From Desulfobacterales bacterium (GTDB lineage Bacteria > Desulfobacterota > Desulfobacteria > Desulfobacterales > SG8-13): a DNA stretch of 64,000 bases. The translations under genes were made by a program, and so were the position numbers. The first letter of the stretch is position 1, and every line of letters begins with the position of its first letter. The DNA is taken from positions 26,860-90,859 of the forward strand of contig DAXETY010000002.1 of NCBI GenBank assembly GCA_051155755.1, in the 5' to 3' direction. A model generated the notes under the pieces. That model saw nothing but the letters and a program-made list of their open reading frames with translations, had not been told where the DNA came from and made no database searches. Of this stretch, positions 22,278 through 37,165 are shown piece by piece.

Positions 22278-22506
22278 CGCAAATATTCCTTTGTGTCCGA
22301 GTCGTCTGTTTGCCGCAAAACCGATGGGCGACCGGCGAATTTTACTCCGAAAAAGCTGCGGCAGTGCCGAGGGGGCGCCAGGGAATCTGCCGGGGCCAAC
22401 CGATTTGCAGGTACTTGGAAAAAATGTAGTTTGAAGGAAATGAACAGGAAAGTCAAGAATATCCTGTACTTCTCGGCCTTAAATATTTCAGTTACCCCCT
22501 GCAGGC

Positions 22507-22541
22507 AATAAAAAGGCTGACCGCTTTTGGAGCGGTCAGCC
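22507..22541 (-). terminator. rho-independent terminator (minus strand)
   Basis: 11-bp perfect stem GGCTGACCGCT/AGCGGTCAGCC with a 5-nt loop, followed on the minus strand by TTTTTATT. Confidence 0.6.
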
Positions 22542-22558
22542 TGAAAGGAGGAATACAG

Positions 22559-22618
22559 ATGAAGAATTTCGTGGCTTCGATCTGGATAATAAGCAACGAA
22601 TGTGCCAAAAGTGGCTGA
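22559..22618 (+). CDS. candidate 19-aa small ORF (MKNFVASIWIISNECAKSG)
   Basis: Consensus SD AAAGGAGG with a 6-nt spacer (AATACA) before the ATG. Too short for compositional support. Confidence 0.3.
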   Translation: MKNFVASIWIISNECAKSG

Positions 22619-22716
22619 AAATTCAAAAACGGCGCTAACCAGTTAGATTTCAATCAAAACGCGCGGTCCCGCCCCCGGTGGAGATGCTTTCATTCGAGTC
22701 GATCTTCCCCAGAAAT

Positions 22717-22732
22717 GTTCAAAATTTTGAAC
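22717..22732. promoter_or_regulatory. perfect 16-bp palindrome GTTCAAAATTTTGAAC
   Basis: Read directly. The half-sites GTTCAA/TTGAAC are the same as in the terminator stem at 22796..22811. Confidence 0.3.
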
Positions 22733-22791
22733 CAAATTTCAGCGAATTCACGACAACATTCTTATATAATTCATCATACTTAAAATTTGCC

Positions 22792-22822
22792 GGGCGTTCA
22801 AGATCTTGAACGCCCTTTTTTT
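22792..22822 (+). terminator. rho-independent terminator (strong on plus strand, weak on minus)
   Basis: Perfect palindrome GGGCGTTCAAGATCTTGAACGCCC followed by T7. Confidence 0.7.
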
Positions 22823-31694: not shown

Positions 31695-32837
31695 TCAGCG
31701 GCGCCACGTCAATCCTGCCAGGCGACGGAGCACCACCGGCGGCATGAACTCCGCCCGGTAAGTCGTTGTCCCGGCAACCACCGCCAAATACCGCCGGAGC
31801 AGGTAATGCCGGCGCAGATCCAGAATCCGGTGACTGAGCCCCGGCAGGTGATACAGGAAAGCGCCCATCCAGCGGGCACAGGCGTTGTCGGCGCCGAAGC
31901 GGGATTGCACCCCGGCTTCATAGGCCGACAAAGCGCTGCGATTCGAAAAACAATCGCCGATGGTCTCGGCCGCCAAACGTGCCTGGCAGACGGCCGCATA
32001 AATGCCTTCTCCGGTGATCGGGTCACACAGTCCGGCGGCATCCCCCACCAGAATGCCCCGTTCTTTGGAAAGGTGAAATCTCAGGCCGGGGGTGCAGGGA
32101 ATCCGATGCGCGCGCAAAGCCAACACGTCGGCATCCTGAAAACCCTTATGTTGTAAATATTCGTAAAAACGGGATTTCATGGACCCGGGCCGGGAACCGC
32201 GAGACATAACGCCGACCGACAGCTCCGTTTTCTTTGGAAATACCCAGCCGTAGCCCATCCATTTGCGCTGAAAGTCGAAGTCGATCCGACTGCGAAACGC
32301 GGCCATTGCGCCCGGGCCGGATGGCCGTACCGTGGCCGCCAGGGCGACCATTGCCGCCAGCGGTCCGCGGCAGCCCAGTGCCTTTCGCACCCGGCTTTGC
32401 GTGCCGTCCGCACCGACGATCACCTGCGCTCGAAAAGTACCTTGAGATGTCTGGATGACCAGATTGCCGAAAGACCCGGTCAGGCCCCGAAACACGGTGT
32501 TGTCCTGAAACCGGGCGCCGGCCCGCAGGGCCTTTTCCAGCAAGAAGGCATCGAACCGCTCCCTGCGAACCAGAACGACCGGCGGCGGCGAAAAACGCCG
32601 CTTCATCAGCAGTCGCTCACCAATGCTCAGCTGAATCGTGTGGCCGACGTCTTCGATGACCTCGGAAAGGTCAAAGGGGATTTCCTGAAGGGCTCGACGC
32701 GTGAGCCCGCCGCCGCAGAGTTTGTGCCGTGGAAACTTCCGTTTTTCAATGATTTGGACCTGCAGTCCGAGCGCGGCCAGGTAAAAGGCCGTCATGGCAC
32801 CAGCCGGACCGGCGCCGACTACCGTAACGTCCGTCAT
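31695..32837 (-). CDS. geranylgeranyl-reductase-family FAD-dependent oxidoreductase
   Basis: MTDVTVVGAGPAGA dinucleotide-binding start, followed by KLCGGGL. The start overlaps the upstream stop (ATGA). Confidence 0.8.
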   Translation of the reverse strand: MTDVTVVGAGPAGAMTAFYLAALGLQVQIIEKRKFPRHKLCGGGLTRRALQEIPFDLSEVIEDVGHTIQLSIGERLLMKRRFSPPPVVLVRRERFDAFLLEKALRAGARFQDNTVFRGLTGSFGNLVIQTSQGTFRAQVIVGADGTQSRVRKALGCRGPLAAMVALAATVRPSGPGAMAAFRSRIDFDFQRKWMGYGWVFPKKTELSVGVMSRGSRPGSMKSRFYEYLQHKGFQDADVLALRAHRIPCTPGLRFHLSKERGILVGDAAGLCDPITGEGIYAAVCQARLAAETIGDCFSNRSALSAYEAGVQSRFGADNACARWMGAFLYHLPGLSHRILDLRRHYLLRRYLAVVAGTTTYRAEFMPPVVLRRLAGLTWRR

Positions 32838-33190
32838 CTTGGCTGCGCGCGGCATGCAAGCTCCGATTGGGATGCGAACCTGTCCGTTAAACGGACGCCG
32901 CCGGTTTCAATCCGTTCAAAAACTCTGGCCAGTTCCCTCTCGTTCAGTTCGGCGATTTCCAGGGGGGCGGCCAGAAACCGGCCGGCCGGCATGAATTTGG
33001 ACATCAGGTTGACAAAAGCACTGTAATCCGGAAATTCTGTCTTTGCATAGCGCTGCAGCATCCGACAACGATCCCGGGAGAACTGGAAAAAGATGTATTC
33101 GGTTGCCACTTCCAGAAAACCTCGGTATCCGCACCGGTAGCGATTCAGCGCAATGATTCCGGTTTTGGATGTTGCGGTTGCTGTCTGCAT
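32834..33190 (-). CDS. hypothetical protein (118 aa)
   Basis: The ORF is translationally coupled (ATGA) to the reductase gene. I recognise no family. Confidence 0.5.
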   Translation of the reverse strand: MQTATATSKTGIIALNRYRCGYRGFLEVATEYIFFQFSRDRCRMLQRYAKTEFPDYSAFVNLMSKFMPAGRFLAAPLEIAELNERELARVFERIETGGVRLTDRFASQSELACRAQPR

Positions 33191-33465
33191 ATGGAATCAT
33201 CCTCCCGTCATCCAATGCAATCGTGGCGATCGATTCCCCGGATGGGGAGCCTAAGTATTATTACGTATATTTAATGCGTAGTGCCACGGATTTTCAGATC
33301 GTCGATTTTCTGTTAGGAACATCACCTCGGTTATTGGCAATCCGGCGAAACGGTATTATCTGTTTTTGAGTGCTTTTTGCGTATCCGGAAAAAACAACCT
33401 TATGCTACCTATGTAATCAAACACCTCGATTCATGCAACAGCCAGACGCCATCGAAGGAGCCGCC

Positions 33466-33888
33466 ATGGCGAGCAGAGCCAAGGAGCAACGGCACTGCCG
33501 TAGATTCGAACACGAAACCCCGATTATCATTCAAACCCGGAACAATGGCTGCCACAACGGACGCATGTTCAACTTTTGCAAGGACGGAATGTACATCGAA
33601 ACGGACGTGGAGTGCTGCCCGGGCCAGGAGGTGGCCATCGTGGTCGAAGATCCGCCTTACGGCCGCGGCCCCTTTCTTCACCAGGCCCAAATTAGATGGT
33701 CCCGGGAACTGCCCGAAGCAGTTGAATTCTATCGATTTGGATGCGGCGCACAGTGGGATGTAACGATCGATTACTCCCTCAACCGCTCCAAGTTGCCCTT
33801 TCGGCGCCGCTCCGGACACGATCGACGTTCCGGCAAGGACCGCCGCTCGGGATTGAACTGCCGGCGAAACGACCCGTTCACCGACTAA
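33466..33888 (+). CDS. PilZ-like domain protein with a DRRSG-repeat tail
   Basis: GAAGGAG RBS 6 nt upstream. RHCRR (RxxxR) and NFCKDG in place of the (D/N)xSxxG motif. Paralog of 35258..35605. Confidence 0.55.
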   Translation: MASRAKEQRHCRRFEHETPIIIQTRNNGCHNGRMFNFCKDGMYIETDVECCPGQEVAIVVEDPPYGRGPFLHQAQIRWSRELPEAVEFYRFGCGAQWDVTIDYSLNRSKLPFRRRSGHDRRSGKDRRSGLNCRRNDPFTD

Positions 33889-33924
33889 AGCCGGACGCGA
33901 CCCATTTCCGGCCCCGAAAAATCC

Positions 33925-33953
33925 TTGACATGCCACGCAGTGGTATATATAAA
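33925..33953 (+). promoter_or_regulatory. sigma70-like promoter (TTGACA-17-TATAAA)
   Basis: TTGACA at 33925..33930 and a TATATATAAA tract at 33944..33953. No ORF lies downstream. Confidence 0.5.
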
Positions 33954-33959
33954 AAATAC

Positions 33960-34036
33960 GGTTAGACCATTGTGCCTAACTCAACCTCCTTTCATTGATG
34001 GACGGGCCGCTATACCCCGGCGGCCCGTCTTTTTTT
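33960..34036 (+). ncRNA. candidate small RNA 1 (about 77 nt) with an exposed ACCUCCUUU tract
   Basis: Bracketed by the promoter at 33925 and the terminator at 34001..34036. No plausible ORF. AACCTCCTTTC at 33983..33993. Confidence 0.4.
34001..34036 (+). terminator. rho-independent terminator
   Basis: Perfect 10-bp stem GACGGGCCGC/GCGGCCCGTC, 9-nt loop, then T7. Confidence 0.8.
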
Positions 34037-34150
34037 GGCTTCGGTGGATCTTCCGTGATCCGGGCCCTGCCGTTATACTGGAAAAATGGGAGACGCGGAA
34101 GCGTTGGCGGGGGAATCCAATCGGCAAACAAACCCTTGCCGGAGTGACGA

Positions 34151-34393
34151 TCAGGCGGAACTGGCGGGAGAATGGGGCACATCGGTGCGGTTTTTATACG
34201 AATCGTCCTCTCGGTACATTTTTTGGAAAAACCGCGCCGGCCGGAGTTTGCGAATCAGGTGTTTCGGTTTCCGTTTGGTGGAAGGACGGCGTTCGGTCCA
34301 GAGCCAGATTCTTTCAATCAGCAAAATGCCGACGACCACGGCCAGTACGGACGTCATCATCAACATTCCAAAAATTGCGGGATTTACGGTCAT
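34151..34393 (-). CDS. hypothetical small membrane protein (80 aa)
   Basis: One N-terminal TM helix (IFGMLMMTSVLAVVVGILLI) and a basic tail. The codon third positions look coding-like. Weak GGGGTGAA upstream of the ATG. Confidence 0.35.
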   Translation of the reverse strand: MTVNPAIFGMLMMTSVLAVVVGILLIERIWLWTERRPSTKRKPKHLIRKLRPARFFQKMYREDDSYKNRTDVPHSPASSA

Positions 34394-34600
34394 GGATATT
34401 CACCCCAATGAAAAAAATGATGGGTTTTTCCAGCCGGGCTCTGCCTCTCGCAACCGCGCGGTGCCACCGCGTACCGGCACGATCCTGGTAGAGCAAAGAC
34501 TGTGCCGGGGAAGCCTTTTCCAAAAATTATCAGCTTTAACAAATTGTTATCGTGTTGATTGACTTCAGTTGGCCGAGGATCCGCGCGGTATAATGGGAAA

Positions 34601-34698
34601 ATGGTTTCCGGATGTTGGGCAGTGTTTTTCCCATCCCACCCGCGGCAATTTCCAATCTCAGCAGATCGTGACGCCATCCGGGGGGTGGCATTTTTTTT
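34601..34698 (+). ncRNA. candidate small RNA 2 (about 100 nt)
   Basis: Perfect TATAAT at 34589..34594 but no properly spaced -35. Ends at the terminator 34673..34698. The only overlapping ORF reads through the terminator. Confidence 0.25.
34673..34698 (+). terminator. rho-independent terminator
   Basis: GCCATCC-GGGG-GGTGGC hairpin followed by A then T8. Confidence 0.7.
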
Positions 34699-34850
34699 CA
34701 CCGCATGGGGCAACCGGATTTGCGCACCCTGGCCGCCATCTCGGATGAATACCGGGTGCAAATCGTATTATTATGCAATGCGATACAAGTTCATTGAAAA
34801 CACAAAACGGAGCCGAATATGCAATCGAATCCGCACTTTACAAATAAGAG

Positions 34851-34878
34851 TTGACAAAGACCGCCAACTTGATATGAT
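34851..34878 (+). promoter_or_regulatory. sigma70-like promoter (TTGACA-16-TATGAT)
   Basis: TTGACA at 34851..34856 and TATGAT at 34873..34878. Confidence 0.5.
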
Positions 34879-34884
34879 ACTTTC

Positions 34885-35022
34885 AACTTTGGATATTCCC
34901 CGCCGGGGAGCATAGCTGGGGAGGGTTGGATTTGATCAGCAGCTTGCATTCCCTCCGAAATGAAAAATGCTAAAGCGCTTCTATCACCAGACCCTGTTGC
35001 GAGAGCAGCCGGGTTTTTTTTT
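34885..35022 (+). ncRNA. candidate small RNA 3 (about 140 nt), GGA-rich 5' half
   Basis: Downstream of the promoter at 34851. Four GGA motifs within 34893..34935. GGGAGGG/CCCTCC pairing. Ends in a weak stem plus T9 (35014..35022). Confidence 0.3.
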
Positions 35023-35257
35023 GCCGAAATCAGTCGATTTCGGTTTCGGCAACATGCGGAAGTCAATTACCCAGTGCTGGGAAATGCGGTTCCCAATCCG
35101 GGGTGCCGCGCGTTCTGAGTATCGACGGTAAACCCCCTGCCGGCGGGCCGTTCGCGGATCCGGTATGCAACCGCACGATGGTATGGTTCTTGCTCCCAGT
35201 CCCGCTACAACCGATGGACTTGCCTGTCGCTGTGATTGCATCCGGGAGGAGGGGGCA

Positions 35258-35605
35258 ATGCAAACCGATTCGGAAAACCGGGCCAACGAACGGACCTCGC
35301 TGGAAATTCCCATCATCGTCAACATTCGAGATGAAAAGCGAATATTCCTGGGCGTACTCTTTAATTATAATGAACAGGGCCTTTATTTCGAATCGAATCT
35401 TTCCCTGGCCCCCGGCACCGTTTTTCGCATCGGTGTCGACATTCCCGGCCTCTCGGTGCCGAATCTTTCCAATGCCGAAGTCCAATGGTGCGCGGAGCTC
35501 GAAGAGCCGGCCGGCTTTTTTCTTTACGGTGTCGGTGCCCGTTTTGCCAGTCCGCTGGACTACCAGCGTTTCTTTCTGCGCGGCCTCCGTCTTCTCCAGA
35601 CCTGA
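35258..35605 (+). CDS. PilZ-like domain protein
   Basis: GGAGGAGGGGG RBS. RANER (RxxxR) and NYNEQG in place of (D/N)xSxxG. Collinear with 33466..33888. Confidence 0.5.
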   Translation: MQTDSENRANERTSLEIPIIVNIRDEKRIFLGVLFNYNEQGLYFESNLSLAPGTVFRIGVDIPGLSVPNLSNAEVQWCAELEEPAGFFLYGVGARFASPLDYQRFFLRGLRLLQT

Positions 35606-35974
35606 AACCGGTTCGAATTCCGCCCGCCTGTCCTTGTTTCCGATGCAGGTATGAAAAGTCCGAGAATGCGGATCGCCCGTTGCAGCGACCTTACCCCGGT
35701 TTAGATTCGGGTTCGGTTGCGTGTCTGCGCAGGGCGGACCACCCGTAGCGGCCCGGCGGCAAGAAGCCGGCGCCCACAACCGGTCTCTTCGATGTTTCCC
35801 CGGTCCTCCATGCCGGGTCTTTTCGGGGCCACAGAAATCAGCGCACACCCTGTGCCAAATCGGGCCGATTCGTGTACCGTTCGGGTTGCAGGTATGCTAT
35901 AGCCGGTCCTAGATTGCCCGGGCCGGATTCCATTTCGGTTTCCCCGGCGGCGCGAATCGGAATGCTTCTCTCTT

Positions 35975-37165
35975 ATGCAAAAAGTCGACAAAGCGATTTT
36001 CGTCACCCTGTTTTTTTCCATATTCGCCACCATCACCGGGGTGGGCATCGTGGTGCCGCTGCTGCCGGTCTATGCGCGGAGCCTGGGTGCCGGCGGTTTC
36101 GCCATCGGACTGATTTTCGGCGCGTTTTCCCTTTCGCGGGTTTTTTTTCTGCCCTATTTCGGCCGTCTCTCGGATCGCAAAGGACGCAAACCACTGATCG
36201 TACCGGGACTGCTGGCATACACCCTGATCTCTTTTGCATTCATGGCCTCCAGCAACATTGTTGCCTTGATTGCGATCCGGTTTTTGCAGGGGATTGCCTC
36301 GGCCATGCTGCTGCCCGTCATTCAAGCGTATGTCGGAGACATCACCTCCGAAGGTCGGGAAGGGTTTACCATGGGACTGTTCCAGATGTCCCTGTTTTTC
36401 GGCTTGAGCCTGGGCCCGGTGCTCGGCGGGGTGATTCATGATCGTTTCGGTTTGAATGCGGCCTTTCTGGGAATGGGAACATTGTCTCTGTTCGGTTTCC
36501 TGCTCAGCATGTTTCTGTTGCCGCCGGCCCGCAAAGAAAGGGCCGTCTGCCGGGGGCGTCCGCCCGCCGAATGGAGGCGGTTGCTGCAGAGTCGGCAGAT
36601 CGCCGCTTTATTCGTGTTCCGTTTTGCCTACACGGCCTGCATCGGCATCATCTGGGGATTTCTGCCGGTCCTTGCCGCTGGTGAATTTTCGCTAACCAGT
36701 GCCATGATCGGCTTTCTGGTCATGCTGGGAATTCTAATCAGCGGAATCATCCACCTGCCCATGGGCTACCTGGCCGACCGCGTTAACAAAAAGTCCCTGG
36801 TGATCATCGGTGGATTGCTGGTCAGCTATGCCGTGGTTTCATACGCCTGGTCCGACAGCCTGATGGAGTTGATTCTGGCCAGTGCCGCCTTTGGGATTGG
36901 TGGCGGCATCTGCATGCCGGCACTCATGGCAGCCGCAGTGACCGTCGGCGACCGCAGTGACGCCATGGGTTCGGTGATGGCCCTGCTTACGGTGTCCCAC
37001 AGCCTCGGCATGCTCTTCGGCTCCATGTCCGCCGGATTGATGATGGACGTTTTCCGGCTGCGGGCCGCATTCCCGCTGGGGGCGATCCTCATGCTGGCCG
37101 GTTCGCTGTTGTTTATGATGCTGTCCCGCGAAGAACGCCCGTTTCACTCACCAAATCGTCTGTAA
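35975..37165 (+). CDS. MFS transporter
   Basis: 12-TM pattern. The GRLSDRKGRKP loop motif between TM2 and TM3. Confidence 0.85.
   Translation: MQKVDKAIFVTLFFSIFATITGVGIVVPLLPVYARSLGAGGFAIGLIFGAFSLSRVFFLPYFGRLSDRKGRKPLIVPGLLAYTLISFAFMASSNIVALIAIRFLQGIASAMLLPVIQAYVGDITSEGREGFTMGLFQMSLFFGLSLGPVLGGVIHDRFGLNAAFLGMGTLSLFGFLLSMFLLPPARKERAVCRGRPPAEWRRLLQSRQIAALFVFRFAYTACIGIIWGFLPVLAAGEFSLTSAMIGFLVMLGILISGIIHLPMGYLADRVNKKSLVIIGGLLVSYAVVSYAWSDSLMELILASAAFGIGGGICMPALMAAAVTVGDRSDAMGSVMALLTVSHSLGMLFGSMSAGLMMDVFRLRAAFPLGAILMLAGSLLFMMLSREERPFHSPNRL

Follow-up and report, generated by a model that had tools for sequence, protein, structure and literature searches.

The 1369-bp gap (33889..35257) between two PilZ-like genes of a Desulfobacterales MAG is best read as a gene-loss mosaic around two true RNA genes (units 1 and 3), the second of which is a predicted aptamer of the SAM-II/SAM-V class and likely an OFF switch; we give this reading a probability of about 0.7. 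A preliminary description of the window, i.e., the whole stretch of 64,000 nucleotides analysed, had proposed that three promoter/terminator units in this gap suggest a small-RNA locus, possibly tied in function to the flanking genes. We compared the island across 6–7 related lineages. A global MAFFT alignment misaligned the 5' half because of a 1.2-kb indel, and the alignment was therefore done by segment. The features of the island are as follows.

33466..33888, plus strand: PilZ-A, a 140-aa PilZ-like protein (PF07238, E 7.6e-4, 20.2 bits)
33925..33953, plus strand: promoter of unit 1 (TTGACA 33925-33930, 17-nt spacer, TATAAA 33948-33953)
33958..34038, plus strand: unit 1 sRNA, ~80 nt (fold, covariation, matches to model R1)
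33961-33980, plus strand: 5' hairpin of unit 1
33981-33999, plus strand: single-stranded CUCAACCUCCUUUCAUUGAU of unit 1
34000-34037, plus strand: terminator of unit 1 (stem 34000-34030, T-run 34031-34037)
34151..34393, minus strand: small membrane-protein gene, 80 codons (tblastn conservation)
34492..34507, minus strand: predicted sigma54-type promoter of the small-protein gene, CGGCACAGTCTTTGCT (1 mismatch to TGGCAC-N5-TTGCW)
34589..34594, plus strand: orphan TATAAT of unit 2 (no conservation as a promoter)
34594..34633, no strand assigned: conserved block TGGGAAAATGGTTTCCGGATGTTGGGCAGTGTTTTTCCCA, at a distance of 86-141 bp upstream from the promoter at 34492..34507
34641..34749, plus strand: junction of a deletion, with what remains of the 3' end of a saccharopine-dehydrogenase-like (SDH) gene, including the hairpin/T-run at 34673-34698 (tblastn, DNA homology)
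34785..34878, plus strand: sigma70 promoter of unit 3 with the DNA before it (scan 11/12; conserved)
34885..35022, plus strand: unit 3 RNA (RF01726 23.6 bits, invariant core)
35069..35104, no strand assigned: palindromes CCCAGTGCTGGG and GGGAA-N6-TTCCC upstream of PilZ-B (inverted-repeat search)
35179..35194, plus strand: predicted sigma54-type promoter of PilZ-B, TGGTATGGTTCTTGCT (2 mismatches to consensus)
35258..35605, plus strand: PilZ-B, a 115-aa PilZ-domain protein (PF07238, 25.2 bits)

The flanking genes are PilZ-like paralogs, as had been proposed. Their products share 33% identity over 99 residues (E 2e-17) and both match PF07238, PilZ-B above the Pfam gathering cut-off of 22.5 bits and PilZ-A just under it, and the PilZ-A orthologs P0028-P0033 carry a precomputed match to the same family. 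The c-di-GMP motifs of the PilZ domain are RxxxR and D/NxSxxG. As in other PilZ domain proteins the first is kept in both (RHCRR, RANER), whereas the Ser of the second is replaced by Cys in PilZ-A (NFCKDG) and by Asn in PilZ-B (NYNEQG), and binding of c-di-GMP is putative. PilZ-B also shows a weak match to TIGR02266; the relatives found for it are close ones only (87-98% identity), and alignment searches of genome contigs and metagenome contigs returned none.

The individual signals reported for the gap were also recovered. One of the two sigma70-like promoters (34851-34878) was found by our scan, and the other, 33925-33953, falls outside the scan rule, which demands a T at position 6, but is conserved in relatives. 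The TATAAT at 34589-34594 is an orphan because it lies 24 nt after a TTGACT, and T-run terminators are present at 34000-34037, 34673-34698 and 34992-35022. Between 33000 and 36000 there are 11 terminator-like sites where 4.1 ± 2.0 are expected by chance, and promoter-like sites show no excess (3 vs. 2.3 ± 1.8). It is conservation rather than signal density that provides the evidence for RNA genes, and comparison of the locus in relatives upholds the small-RNA interpretation for units 1 and 3 and contradicts it for unit 2, whose TATAAT is not conserved.

Unit 1 was identified in the window and in L001, L006, L258, L260, L261 and L251-L255, and its model R1 gives matches of 48-110 bits in seven lineages. 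The RNA folds with a minimum free energy of -30.1 kcal/mol (z -3.5). Across the alignment its 18 pairs are formed in 95.6% of cells, compared with 33-47% when the partners are slid by 1-3 columns, and five pairs have changed on both sides, a number equalled in 3 of 500 shuffles. The promoter spacer contains the palindrome CCAC-N3-GTGG, which is kept together with TTGACA in the window, L001, L006, L258, L260 and L261 while the central 3 nt vary; the L251 version is CTAC..GTGG. The -10 element may alternatively be read as an extended TGgTATATA. A reading of unit 1 as the 3' UTR or terminator of PilZ-A was rejected, given its own conserved promoter and its separation from PilZ-A in L251. Unit 1 has no match in Rfam.

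Between hairpin and terminator lies an invariant single-stranded stretch (seed, CUCAACCUCCUUUCAUU) that is anti-Shine-Dalgarno-like, its CCUCCUUUC resembling the 3' end of 16S rRNA. Unit 1 is an independent, probably trans-acting sRNA of ~80 nt that would pair with ribosome-binding sites and block or modulate translation. Target pairing was assessed by seed-only scans rather than whole-RNA duplex predictions; the seed pairs with neighbouring ribosome-binding sites at -12 to -24 kcal/mol, as it would with any strong Shine-Dalgarno site, and no specific target emerged from these scans. CU-rich sRNAs that target Shine-Dalgarno sites include RsaE/RoxS, LhrC and AbcR. These resemble unit 1 in being short, in the hairpin at the 5' end, in a terminator and in a C/U-rich seed that is exposed and can pair with GGAGG, but have no sequence or Rfam relationship to it; the seed of unit 1 is a more literal copy of the rRNA anti-Shine-Dalgarno sequence (ACCUCCUUUC), and its family is confined to one Desulfobacterales subclade.

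Unit 2, judging from alignments with relatives, is not an RNA gene, and its T-run "terminator" represents the 3' remnant of an SDH-like gene. By tblastn the SDH C-terminus is recognised at 34678-34749 (50% over 24 aa) and 34688-34729 (71% over 14 aa), and DNA homology to L009 begins at 34688, within the SDH gene of that lineage. The T-run aligns with FF(F) codons of SDH, the hairpin is weaker in L001, and the positions aligned to TATAAT read GCAATT in L006 and CGAATT in L009. L145 and L260 retain an intact SDH gene (369 aa and 356 aa, respectively), L006 and L009 carry frameshifts in it at different places, and what survives of it is the last 63 aa in L261 and about 24 aa in the window. The gene formerly stood between the small-protein gene and unit 3; its deletion in the window's lineage left the last ~70 bp, terminator-like by coincidence, and accounts both for unit 2 and for the scarcity of genes in the island. 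As a caution, leftovers of a gene lost not long ago can make up part of a dense cluster of orphan promoter and terminator signals. The preliminary description had named a decayed gene, recognisable by alignment with intact homologs, as an outcome that would overturn its interpretation, and this is what we found for unit 2.

Unit 2 shares sequence, in addition, with the control region that lies upstream of the minus-strand ORF at 34151..34393, the sole ORF in the gap conserved at the protein level, which had been singled out as the only plausible one and as encoding a membrane peptide. By tblastn the protein is found in L001, L006, L260, L261 and L251 (six lineages with the window). The conserved N-terminal ~45 aa contain a single transmembrane helix and, after it, E(K/R)IWL, while the lengths of the C-terminal tails vary from 49 to 80 aa. 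The protein belongs to no Pfam or NCBIfam family, and a small-peptide family search among 1.8 billion representatives yielded only 2 real relatives. We regard it as the product of a real, clade-restricted gene with a predicted sigma54-type promoter and a likely upstream activator site. The predicted promoter recurs in L006 (CGGCACAATCTTTGCT), L251 (TGGCATAGTGTTTGCA) and L261 (TGGCATGCCGGTTGCA); a previously considered site at 34621-34636 (minus strand) was superseded by this better, conserved one and is interpreted instead as belonging to an upstream activator site. The block at 34594..34633 is alignable with L006 and L009, visible in L261, and resembles the GGGAA-N6-TTCCC palindrome 5' of PilZ-B; it is likely a site for an activator (enhancer-binding protein).

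PilZ-B is likewise predicted to have its own conserved sigma54-type promoter, from which it would additionally be transcribed. Matches at this level are as frequent as chance predicts (35 found, 33.5 expected); however, TGGTA.G.TTCTTGCT of this site does not vary between lineages, although the sequence on either side of it does. The upstream GGGAA..TTCCCAA is conserved in L006, L009 and L260, and the palindromes at 35069..35104 are likely another activator binding site. At both 34492-34507 (minus strand) and 35179-35194 (plus strand) GG-N10-GC stands at a conserved position with dyads upstream; the two promoter calls are predictions from sequence and conservation. No activator (bEBP) signature motifs or activator gene were found within the window.

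Unit 3 hardly varies, with ~90 nt that contain few variable positions while the flanking coding DNA is 75-80% identical across lineages. Its promoter is TTGACA-16-TATGAT (-35 at 34851-34856, -10 at 34873-34878, TG before the -10); TTGACA is kept in 6/6 sequences covering it, and TTGATATGAT is invariant in 7/7. The RNA is predicted to consist of the following parts.

34898-34908, plus strand: small 5' hairpin
34920-34925 with 34951-34956, plus strand: P1 (GGAGGG with CCCUCC)
34929-34935, plus strand: U-rich strand GAUUUGA
34939-34943 with 34975-34978, plus strand: P2a (GCAGC with GCGC)
34944-34949 with 34967-34973, plus strand: P2 (UUGCAU with AUGC(U)AA, U34971 bulged)
34992-35022, plus strand: terminator (stem 34992-35013, T-run 35014-35022; scan; conserved)

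The preliminary description took unit 3 for an anonymous sRNA; we assign it instead to a SAM-II-like riboswitch aptamer with a terminator, for which binding of SAM is predicted. P1 encloses the loop of the pseudoknot strand, P2/P2a would join this loop to the 3' tail as a pseudoknot with the U-rich sequence as putative third strand of a triplex, and a terminator follows. P2/P2a, the bulged U, the AAA and GAUUUGA agree with the consensus of both RF01726 (SAM-II long loop) and RF00521 (SAM_alpha), and unit 3 shares with SAM-II/SAM-V the H-type pseudoknot layout, the U-rich strand, the A-rich linker and the GCAGC-UUGCA pairing with AUGC(U)AA-A-GCGC. Published descriptions of SAM-II/SAM-V (PMC1273637, PMC6061858) likewise accord with the stems P1, P2 and P2a, the bulged U and the AAA, and a sigma70 promoter on the 5' side and an intrinsic terminator on the 3' side are features of SAM-II as well (PMC1273637, PMC6061858, PMC2258182). 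Compared with known SAM-II members, P1 is offset from the core by an extra UUG and UU, the A-rich linker is longer, and there is an extra invariant 5' segment and hairpin. Against RF01726 unit 3 scores 23.6 bits over the full model (E 0.0093 on 141 nt), below the cut-off of 44, and RF00521 yields no hit even with E values of 10 allowed; a cmscan against Rfam, as had been suggested, gave no match at gathering thresholds over the whole window. Metagenomic copies of the same core type are also below the cut-offs (e.g., L151, 27.8 vs. 36 and 26.7 vs. 44), although nearly identical versions of the L151 core lie before metF and metA.

The core is invariant in 7 sequences, in which all six P1 pairs are standard with a single G-C to G-U change (L247). 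Two-sided covariation for P1, P2 and P2a was not found among these sequences because the aptamer is invariant within the clade; one pair of the terminator has changed on both sides. Folding by minimum free energy is unremarkable (z +0.3), which is no surprise for a pseudoknot. The small ORFs within unit 3 (34960-35118, 52 aa; 34967-35131, 54 aa) were rejected: their starts are lost in L247 and L261, L260 carries a +2 indel, and there is no Shine-Dalgarno site. No further copies of the SAM-II-like core were found in the window, L262 or L263.

Unit 3 is followed by PilZ-B and then an MFS gene in the window, L006, L009 and L260, whereas in L145, L247 and L261 a YgjP-like gene replaces PilZ-B, again with MFS next in L247 and L261. 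It does not lead genes of methionine/SAM metabolism, as SAM-II elements do, and we know of no link to SAM for PilZ, YgjP-like or MFS (efflux type) genes. Metagenomic copies that share GCAGCTTGCA...AAAAATGCTAAAGCG with unit 3 stand before metF and metA, the same core occurs upstream of a free-methionine-sulfoxide-reductase-like gene in metagenomes, and Flavobacterial long-loop copies precede metK. Described hosts of SAM-II are alpha-, beta- and some gamma-Proteobacteria and Bacteroidetes (PMC2258182, PMC2864571), in contrast to the Desulfobacterales host of unit 3; our literature search found no paper linking SAM-II to Desulfobacter*.

Most likely, unit 3 would act as a transcription-termination OFF switch under its own sigma70 promoter. 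From the aptamer match we infer that SAM or a close analogue, once bound, would let the aptamer fold and the terminator form; if no ligand is bound, the 5' strand of P1, which is rich in G, could pair with the CCC at the terminator start and allow read-through into PilZ-B and then MFS in the window, or YgjP-like and then MFS in other lineages. SAM-II is usually accompanied by terminators (PMC2258182, PMC1273637). In L261 the YgjP-like gene begins 86 nt beyond the terminator with no obvious promoter between, an arrangement typical of riboswitches.

In 6/7 sequences the anti-terminator pairing put forward above (-11 to -14 kcal/mol) does not stand out from shuffled controls, so the terminator may be constitutive, and unit 3 could then be a stand-alone riboswitch-derived sRNA, a ~130-nt SAM-binding RNA that acts in trans or titrates a factor, for which Listeria SreA/SreB and EutX/Rli55 are precedents. 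Its own strong and conserved promoter and terminator, the separate sigma54-type promoter at PilZ-B, the lineage-dependent gene 3' of it and the segment 5' of P1 (GGGAGCAUAGCU), invariant unlike in ordinary SAM-II elements, speak for this. We nevertheless consider it doubtful, though far from negligible, since an MFS gene always lies downstream on the same strand, the next gene in L261 has no recognisable promoter, and no trans target was found. Three independent sRNA units acting with the flanking PilZ genes, as first envisaged, are unlikely: units 1 and 3 are real, unit 1 adjoins PilZ-A in 5 of the 6 lineages covering both, and its seed can pair with the ribosome-binding site of PilZ-B, a very strong one, at -19.2 kcal/mol in the window (-24.1 in L006), but energies in this range come with every strong Shine-Dalgarno site, unit 2 is what a lost gene left behind, and the tie to the PilZ genes comes apart where unit 3 is retained without PilZ-B and where unit 1 lies ~5 kb from the PilZ-A ortholog (L251-L255).

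Rather less likely still is a type I toxin-antitoxin pair with the membrane peptide as hydrophobic toxin and unit 1 as RNA antitoxin. The two genes are convergent neighbours in every lineage covering both, the peptide is short with a single transmembrane helix, and the unit 1 hairpin with a U-run is a terminator-like site on the minus strand (33980-33961), so that the peptide mRNA could overlap unit 1. However, L251 has a separate terminator-like hairpin between them, the seed is predicted to pair weakly with the peptide's 5' region, at sites that are neither homologous nor conserved (-11 to -14 kcal/mol), and complementarity of the RNA to the toxin mRNA, through overlap or at a conserved site, was not found; the variable tails (49 to 80 aa) and the sigma54-type promoter, which to our knowledge is unusual for type I toxins, also argue against it. 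That the whole island is decayed pseudogene DNA with all signals arising by chance is hardly credible: ~110 bp are truly gene remnant and promoter-like sites are not enriched, but units 1 and 3 are conserved better than the coding DNA on the flanks, unit 1 shows compensatory changes, and both RNAs stand alongside an intact SDH gene in L260, as unit 3 does in L145.

As far as we know, regulatory RNAs have received little study in Desulfobacterota, and the island adds two conserved RNA genes whose boundaries, promoters, terminators and orthologs are described here at single-nucleotide resolution. We tentatively raise the possibility that a SAM-II-class aptamer was recruited away from methionine genes in a Desulfobacterales subclade, where it gates an operon of a putative c-di-GMP receptor (PilZ) and an MFS transporter, serves as a free SAM-sensing sRNA or binds another ligand, beside a new family of anti-Shine-Dalgarno-mimic sRNAs that would comprise unit 1 (sigma70-type) and a second RNA at 22500-22610 (sigma54-type). 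If true, a SAM-II-like aptamer beyond the known taxa and methionine metabolism would widen the range of this riboswitch class, and Rfam cut-offs would miss working variants; the same-core copies before metF and metA are also under the cut-off.

The second sRNA of the window is the following.

22500-22610: sRNA with a perfect TGGCAC-N5-TTGC promoter (22592-22607) and two upstream palindromes

An Rfam search showed no sequence similarity of this RNA to the Qrr and GlmY families, which are sigma54-dependent sRNA genes. Both share with it the TGGCAC-N5-TTGC promoter, the two upstream palindromes and the short RNA. It is itself a short hairpin-seed-terminator RNA whose seed is anti-Shine-Dalgarno-like.

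Both products that bound the island, PilZ-A and PilZ-B, match Pfam PilZ (PilZ-B over the cut-off, PilZ-A slightly under it, with the domain present in PilZ-A orthologs) and are 33% identical over 99 residues (E 2e-17). The 1369-bp gap between them holds a single ORF conserved at the protein level, on the minus strand with 80 codons, so the picture of two PilZ-like paralogs around a gene-poor gap stands. The signal density described earlier holds for terminator-like sites, which are in excess at 33000-36000 (11 vs. 4.1 ± 2.0 expected), but not for promoter-like sites (3 vs. 2.3 ± 1.8). The locus was obtained in several lineages via exact-protein look-ups and homolog searches.

Features in the window
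22500-22815, minus strand: second sRNA-like gene
33466-33888, plus strand: PilZ-A
33958-34038: unit 1 RNA
34151-34393, minus strand: small peptide gene
34492-34507, minus strand: its sigma54-type promoter, CGGCACAGTCTTTGCT, one mismatch
34589-34698: "unit 2", from TATAAT to T-run
34885-35022: unit 3
35258-35605, plus strand: PilZ-B

Related loci, identity to the window
L001, L003, L004: DNA, 92-95%
L006-L008: ~75%
L009, L010: ~79%
L260: MFS protein, 83%
L261: MFS protein, 73%
L145, L247: located by DNA pattern
L258: PilZ-A, 74%
L251-L255: PilZ-A, 67%; neighbourhood differs

Two of the three units proposed as a small-RNA locus, units 1 and 3, are real RNA genes conserved in related genomes, whereas "unit 2" is the scar of a lost gene, and the refuting case of a decayed pseudogene, checked by alignment to homologs, applies to it alone. 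Unit 1, with the promoter TTGACA-17-TATAAA, folds at -30.1 kcal/mol (z -3.5); it belongs to a known general type of sRNA but forms a new family, and its putative targets are ribosome-binding sites. A covariance model trained on three sequences matches L258 (90.7 bits), L260 (93.7), L261 (73.8) and L251 (48.1). In the model-fitted alignment 95.6% of cells are paired, vs. 33-47% with slid partners, and five pairs changed on both sides, a result matched by 3 of 500 shuffles; CUCAACCUCCUUUCAUU, which links the two hairpins, is invariant. A palindrome in the promoter spacer (33931-33947), CCAC-N3-GTGG, is kept in six lineages with its central 3 nt variable and is degenerate in L251; the variable centre suggests an operator, which may be that of a repressor. 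When the single-stranded, anti-Shine-Dalgarno-like seed was scanned alone, strong ribosome-binding sites, that of PilZ-B among them, gave duplexes of -19 to -24 kcal/mol; such pairing is generic behaviour. In L251 (11069-11100), a sugar-binding-protein gene that diverges from the ortholog of unit 1 carries UUGAAAGGAGGCC as its ribosome-binding site; 10 nt of it are complementary to the seed (-17.5 kcal/mol), perhaps by chance.

The convergent small peptide gene always follows unit 1. Its product is conserved in six lineages (M..NP.(I/V)(F/Y)G...T..VL...V.IL..E(K/R)IWL), belongs to no Pfam or NCBIfam family and has hardly any relatives among 1.8 billion representatives searched. Counterparts of its promoter are CGGCACAATCTTTGCT in L006, TGGCATAGTGTTTGCA in L251 and TGGCATGCCGGTTGCA in L261. 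A conserved block 86-141 bp upstream of that promoter (34594-34633), a putative activator site, is similar to the GGGAA-N6-TTCCC dyad upstream of PilZ-B, which has its own conserved sigma54-type promoter.

The reading of "unit 2" as an RNA unit rested on a TATAAT and a terminator. The TATAAT lies 24 nt from its TTGACT and shows no conservation in the alignment of relatives; the supposed terminator (34673-34698) has a window-specific hairpin, weaker in L001, and a T-run aligned to FF(F) codons of a saccharopine-dehydrogenase-like gene (SDH; Pfam Sacchrp_dh_NADP and Sacchrp_dh_C). Relatives have this gene in the interval from the small peptide gene to PilZ-B, in a lineage-dependent state.

State of SDH
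L145, 53-1159, reverse strand: intact, 369 aa
L260, 2718-3788: intact, 356 aa
L006, 3371-4566: split by a frameshift
L009, 248-1275: split by a frameshift at another point
L261, 3650-3835: final 63 codons left
Window and L001: ~24 codons left

The window's remnant (34678-34749) is 50% identical over 24 aa, and DNA homology to L009 starts at 34688, within the L009 gene. Deletion is the parsimonious direction because two lineages carry remnants with different break points, and gene loss explains "unit 2". Among close lineages the gene is intact in some and, in others, frameshifted at two points or truncated in two ways, which suggests repeated independent loss, although the L006 and L009 frameshifts could instead be assembly errors.

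The description that fits unit 3 best is a new SAM-II-class variant, with predicted ligand and switching, whose host group and gene context are likewise new. Few positions vary from ~34889 to 34978 in seven aligned sequences, and flanking coding DNA is 75-80% identical. The Rfam comparison returned a full-length match to SAM-II long loop (RF01726; E 0.16 on 2.4 kb, 0.0093 on 141 nt), but at 23.6 bits, under the cut-off of 44. Positions can be assigned on the sequence to P1, P2 with a bulged U, AAA, P2a and the U-rich strand, consistent with published descriptions (PMC1273637, PMC6061858). Internal covariation is lacking since the elements are invariant within the clade; in the conserved terminator, a single U-A pair is exchanged for C-G. 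In every lineage the 5' strand of P1 could instead pair with the 5' arm of the terminator (9 perfect bp in L009); this alternative pairing is no better than in shuffled controls.

The pattern from this match (TTGCA..CCTC..AAAAATGCTAAAGC) occurs in > 120 genomes, chiefly Flavobacteriia, before a gene whose product begins M(S/A)YLFTSESVSEGHPDK and which is recognisable as metK. A variant core identical to that of unit 3, GCAGCTTGCA...AAAAATGCTAAAGCG, is found on metagenome contigs L140, L151, L166, L179, L189, L216, L226 and L232, before metF-like (L179), metA-like (L232) and methionine-sulfoxide-reductase-like (L216) genes. None of five such loci tested gave a match at gathering score, and L151 falls below both cut-offs (SAM_alpha, RF00521, and RF01726; 27.8 vs. 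36 and 26.7 vs. 44), so standard annotation overlooks a fair number of variants that probably work.

Gene order after unit 3
PilZ-B, then MFS: window, L001, L006, L009, L260
YgjP-like, then MFS: L247, L261

In L261 the YgjP-like gene begins 86 nt past the terminator with no evident promoter between; unit 3 is absent from the more distant MFS-DnaJ loci L262 and L263. This exchange of neighbours, together with the ~5 kb between unit 1 and PilZ-A in L251, leaves the suggested tie to the PilZ genes unsupported. Upstream of the unit 3 promoter, 34785-34850 is conserved in closer lineages and holds two TATGCAAT..CGA copies ~27 bp apart, possibly transcription-factor sites. On the related JGI contig L001, automatic calls of 171-aa and 52-aa ORFs (1699-2214 and 2489-2647) cross the non-coding island, the shorter spanning the unit 3 terminator; both are probably spurious.

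The unit 1 model also scores 22.3 bits (E 0.0016) on the second sRNA-like gene. Its ~80-nt RNA (MFE -29.4 kcal/mol, z -5.5) comprises a 5' hairpin, single-stranded UAUUCCUCCUUUCA and a strong terminator; the window's only perfect sigma54 promoter, TGGCACATTCGTTGCT, lies at 22592-22607, and two palindromes upstream (22717-22732, 22792-22815) share GTTCAA-N4-TTGAAC. Read on the opposite strand, the interval offers a Shine-Dalgarno site and a 19-codon ORF; this reading appears less probable than an sRNA-like gene. Near PilZ-A, a 118-aa minus-strand ORF (32834-33190) without Pfam or NCBIfam family is also called in related contigs, and the 275 bp directly upstream of PilZ-A (33191-33465) are low in GC (0.45-0.48).
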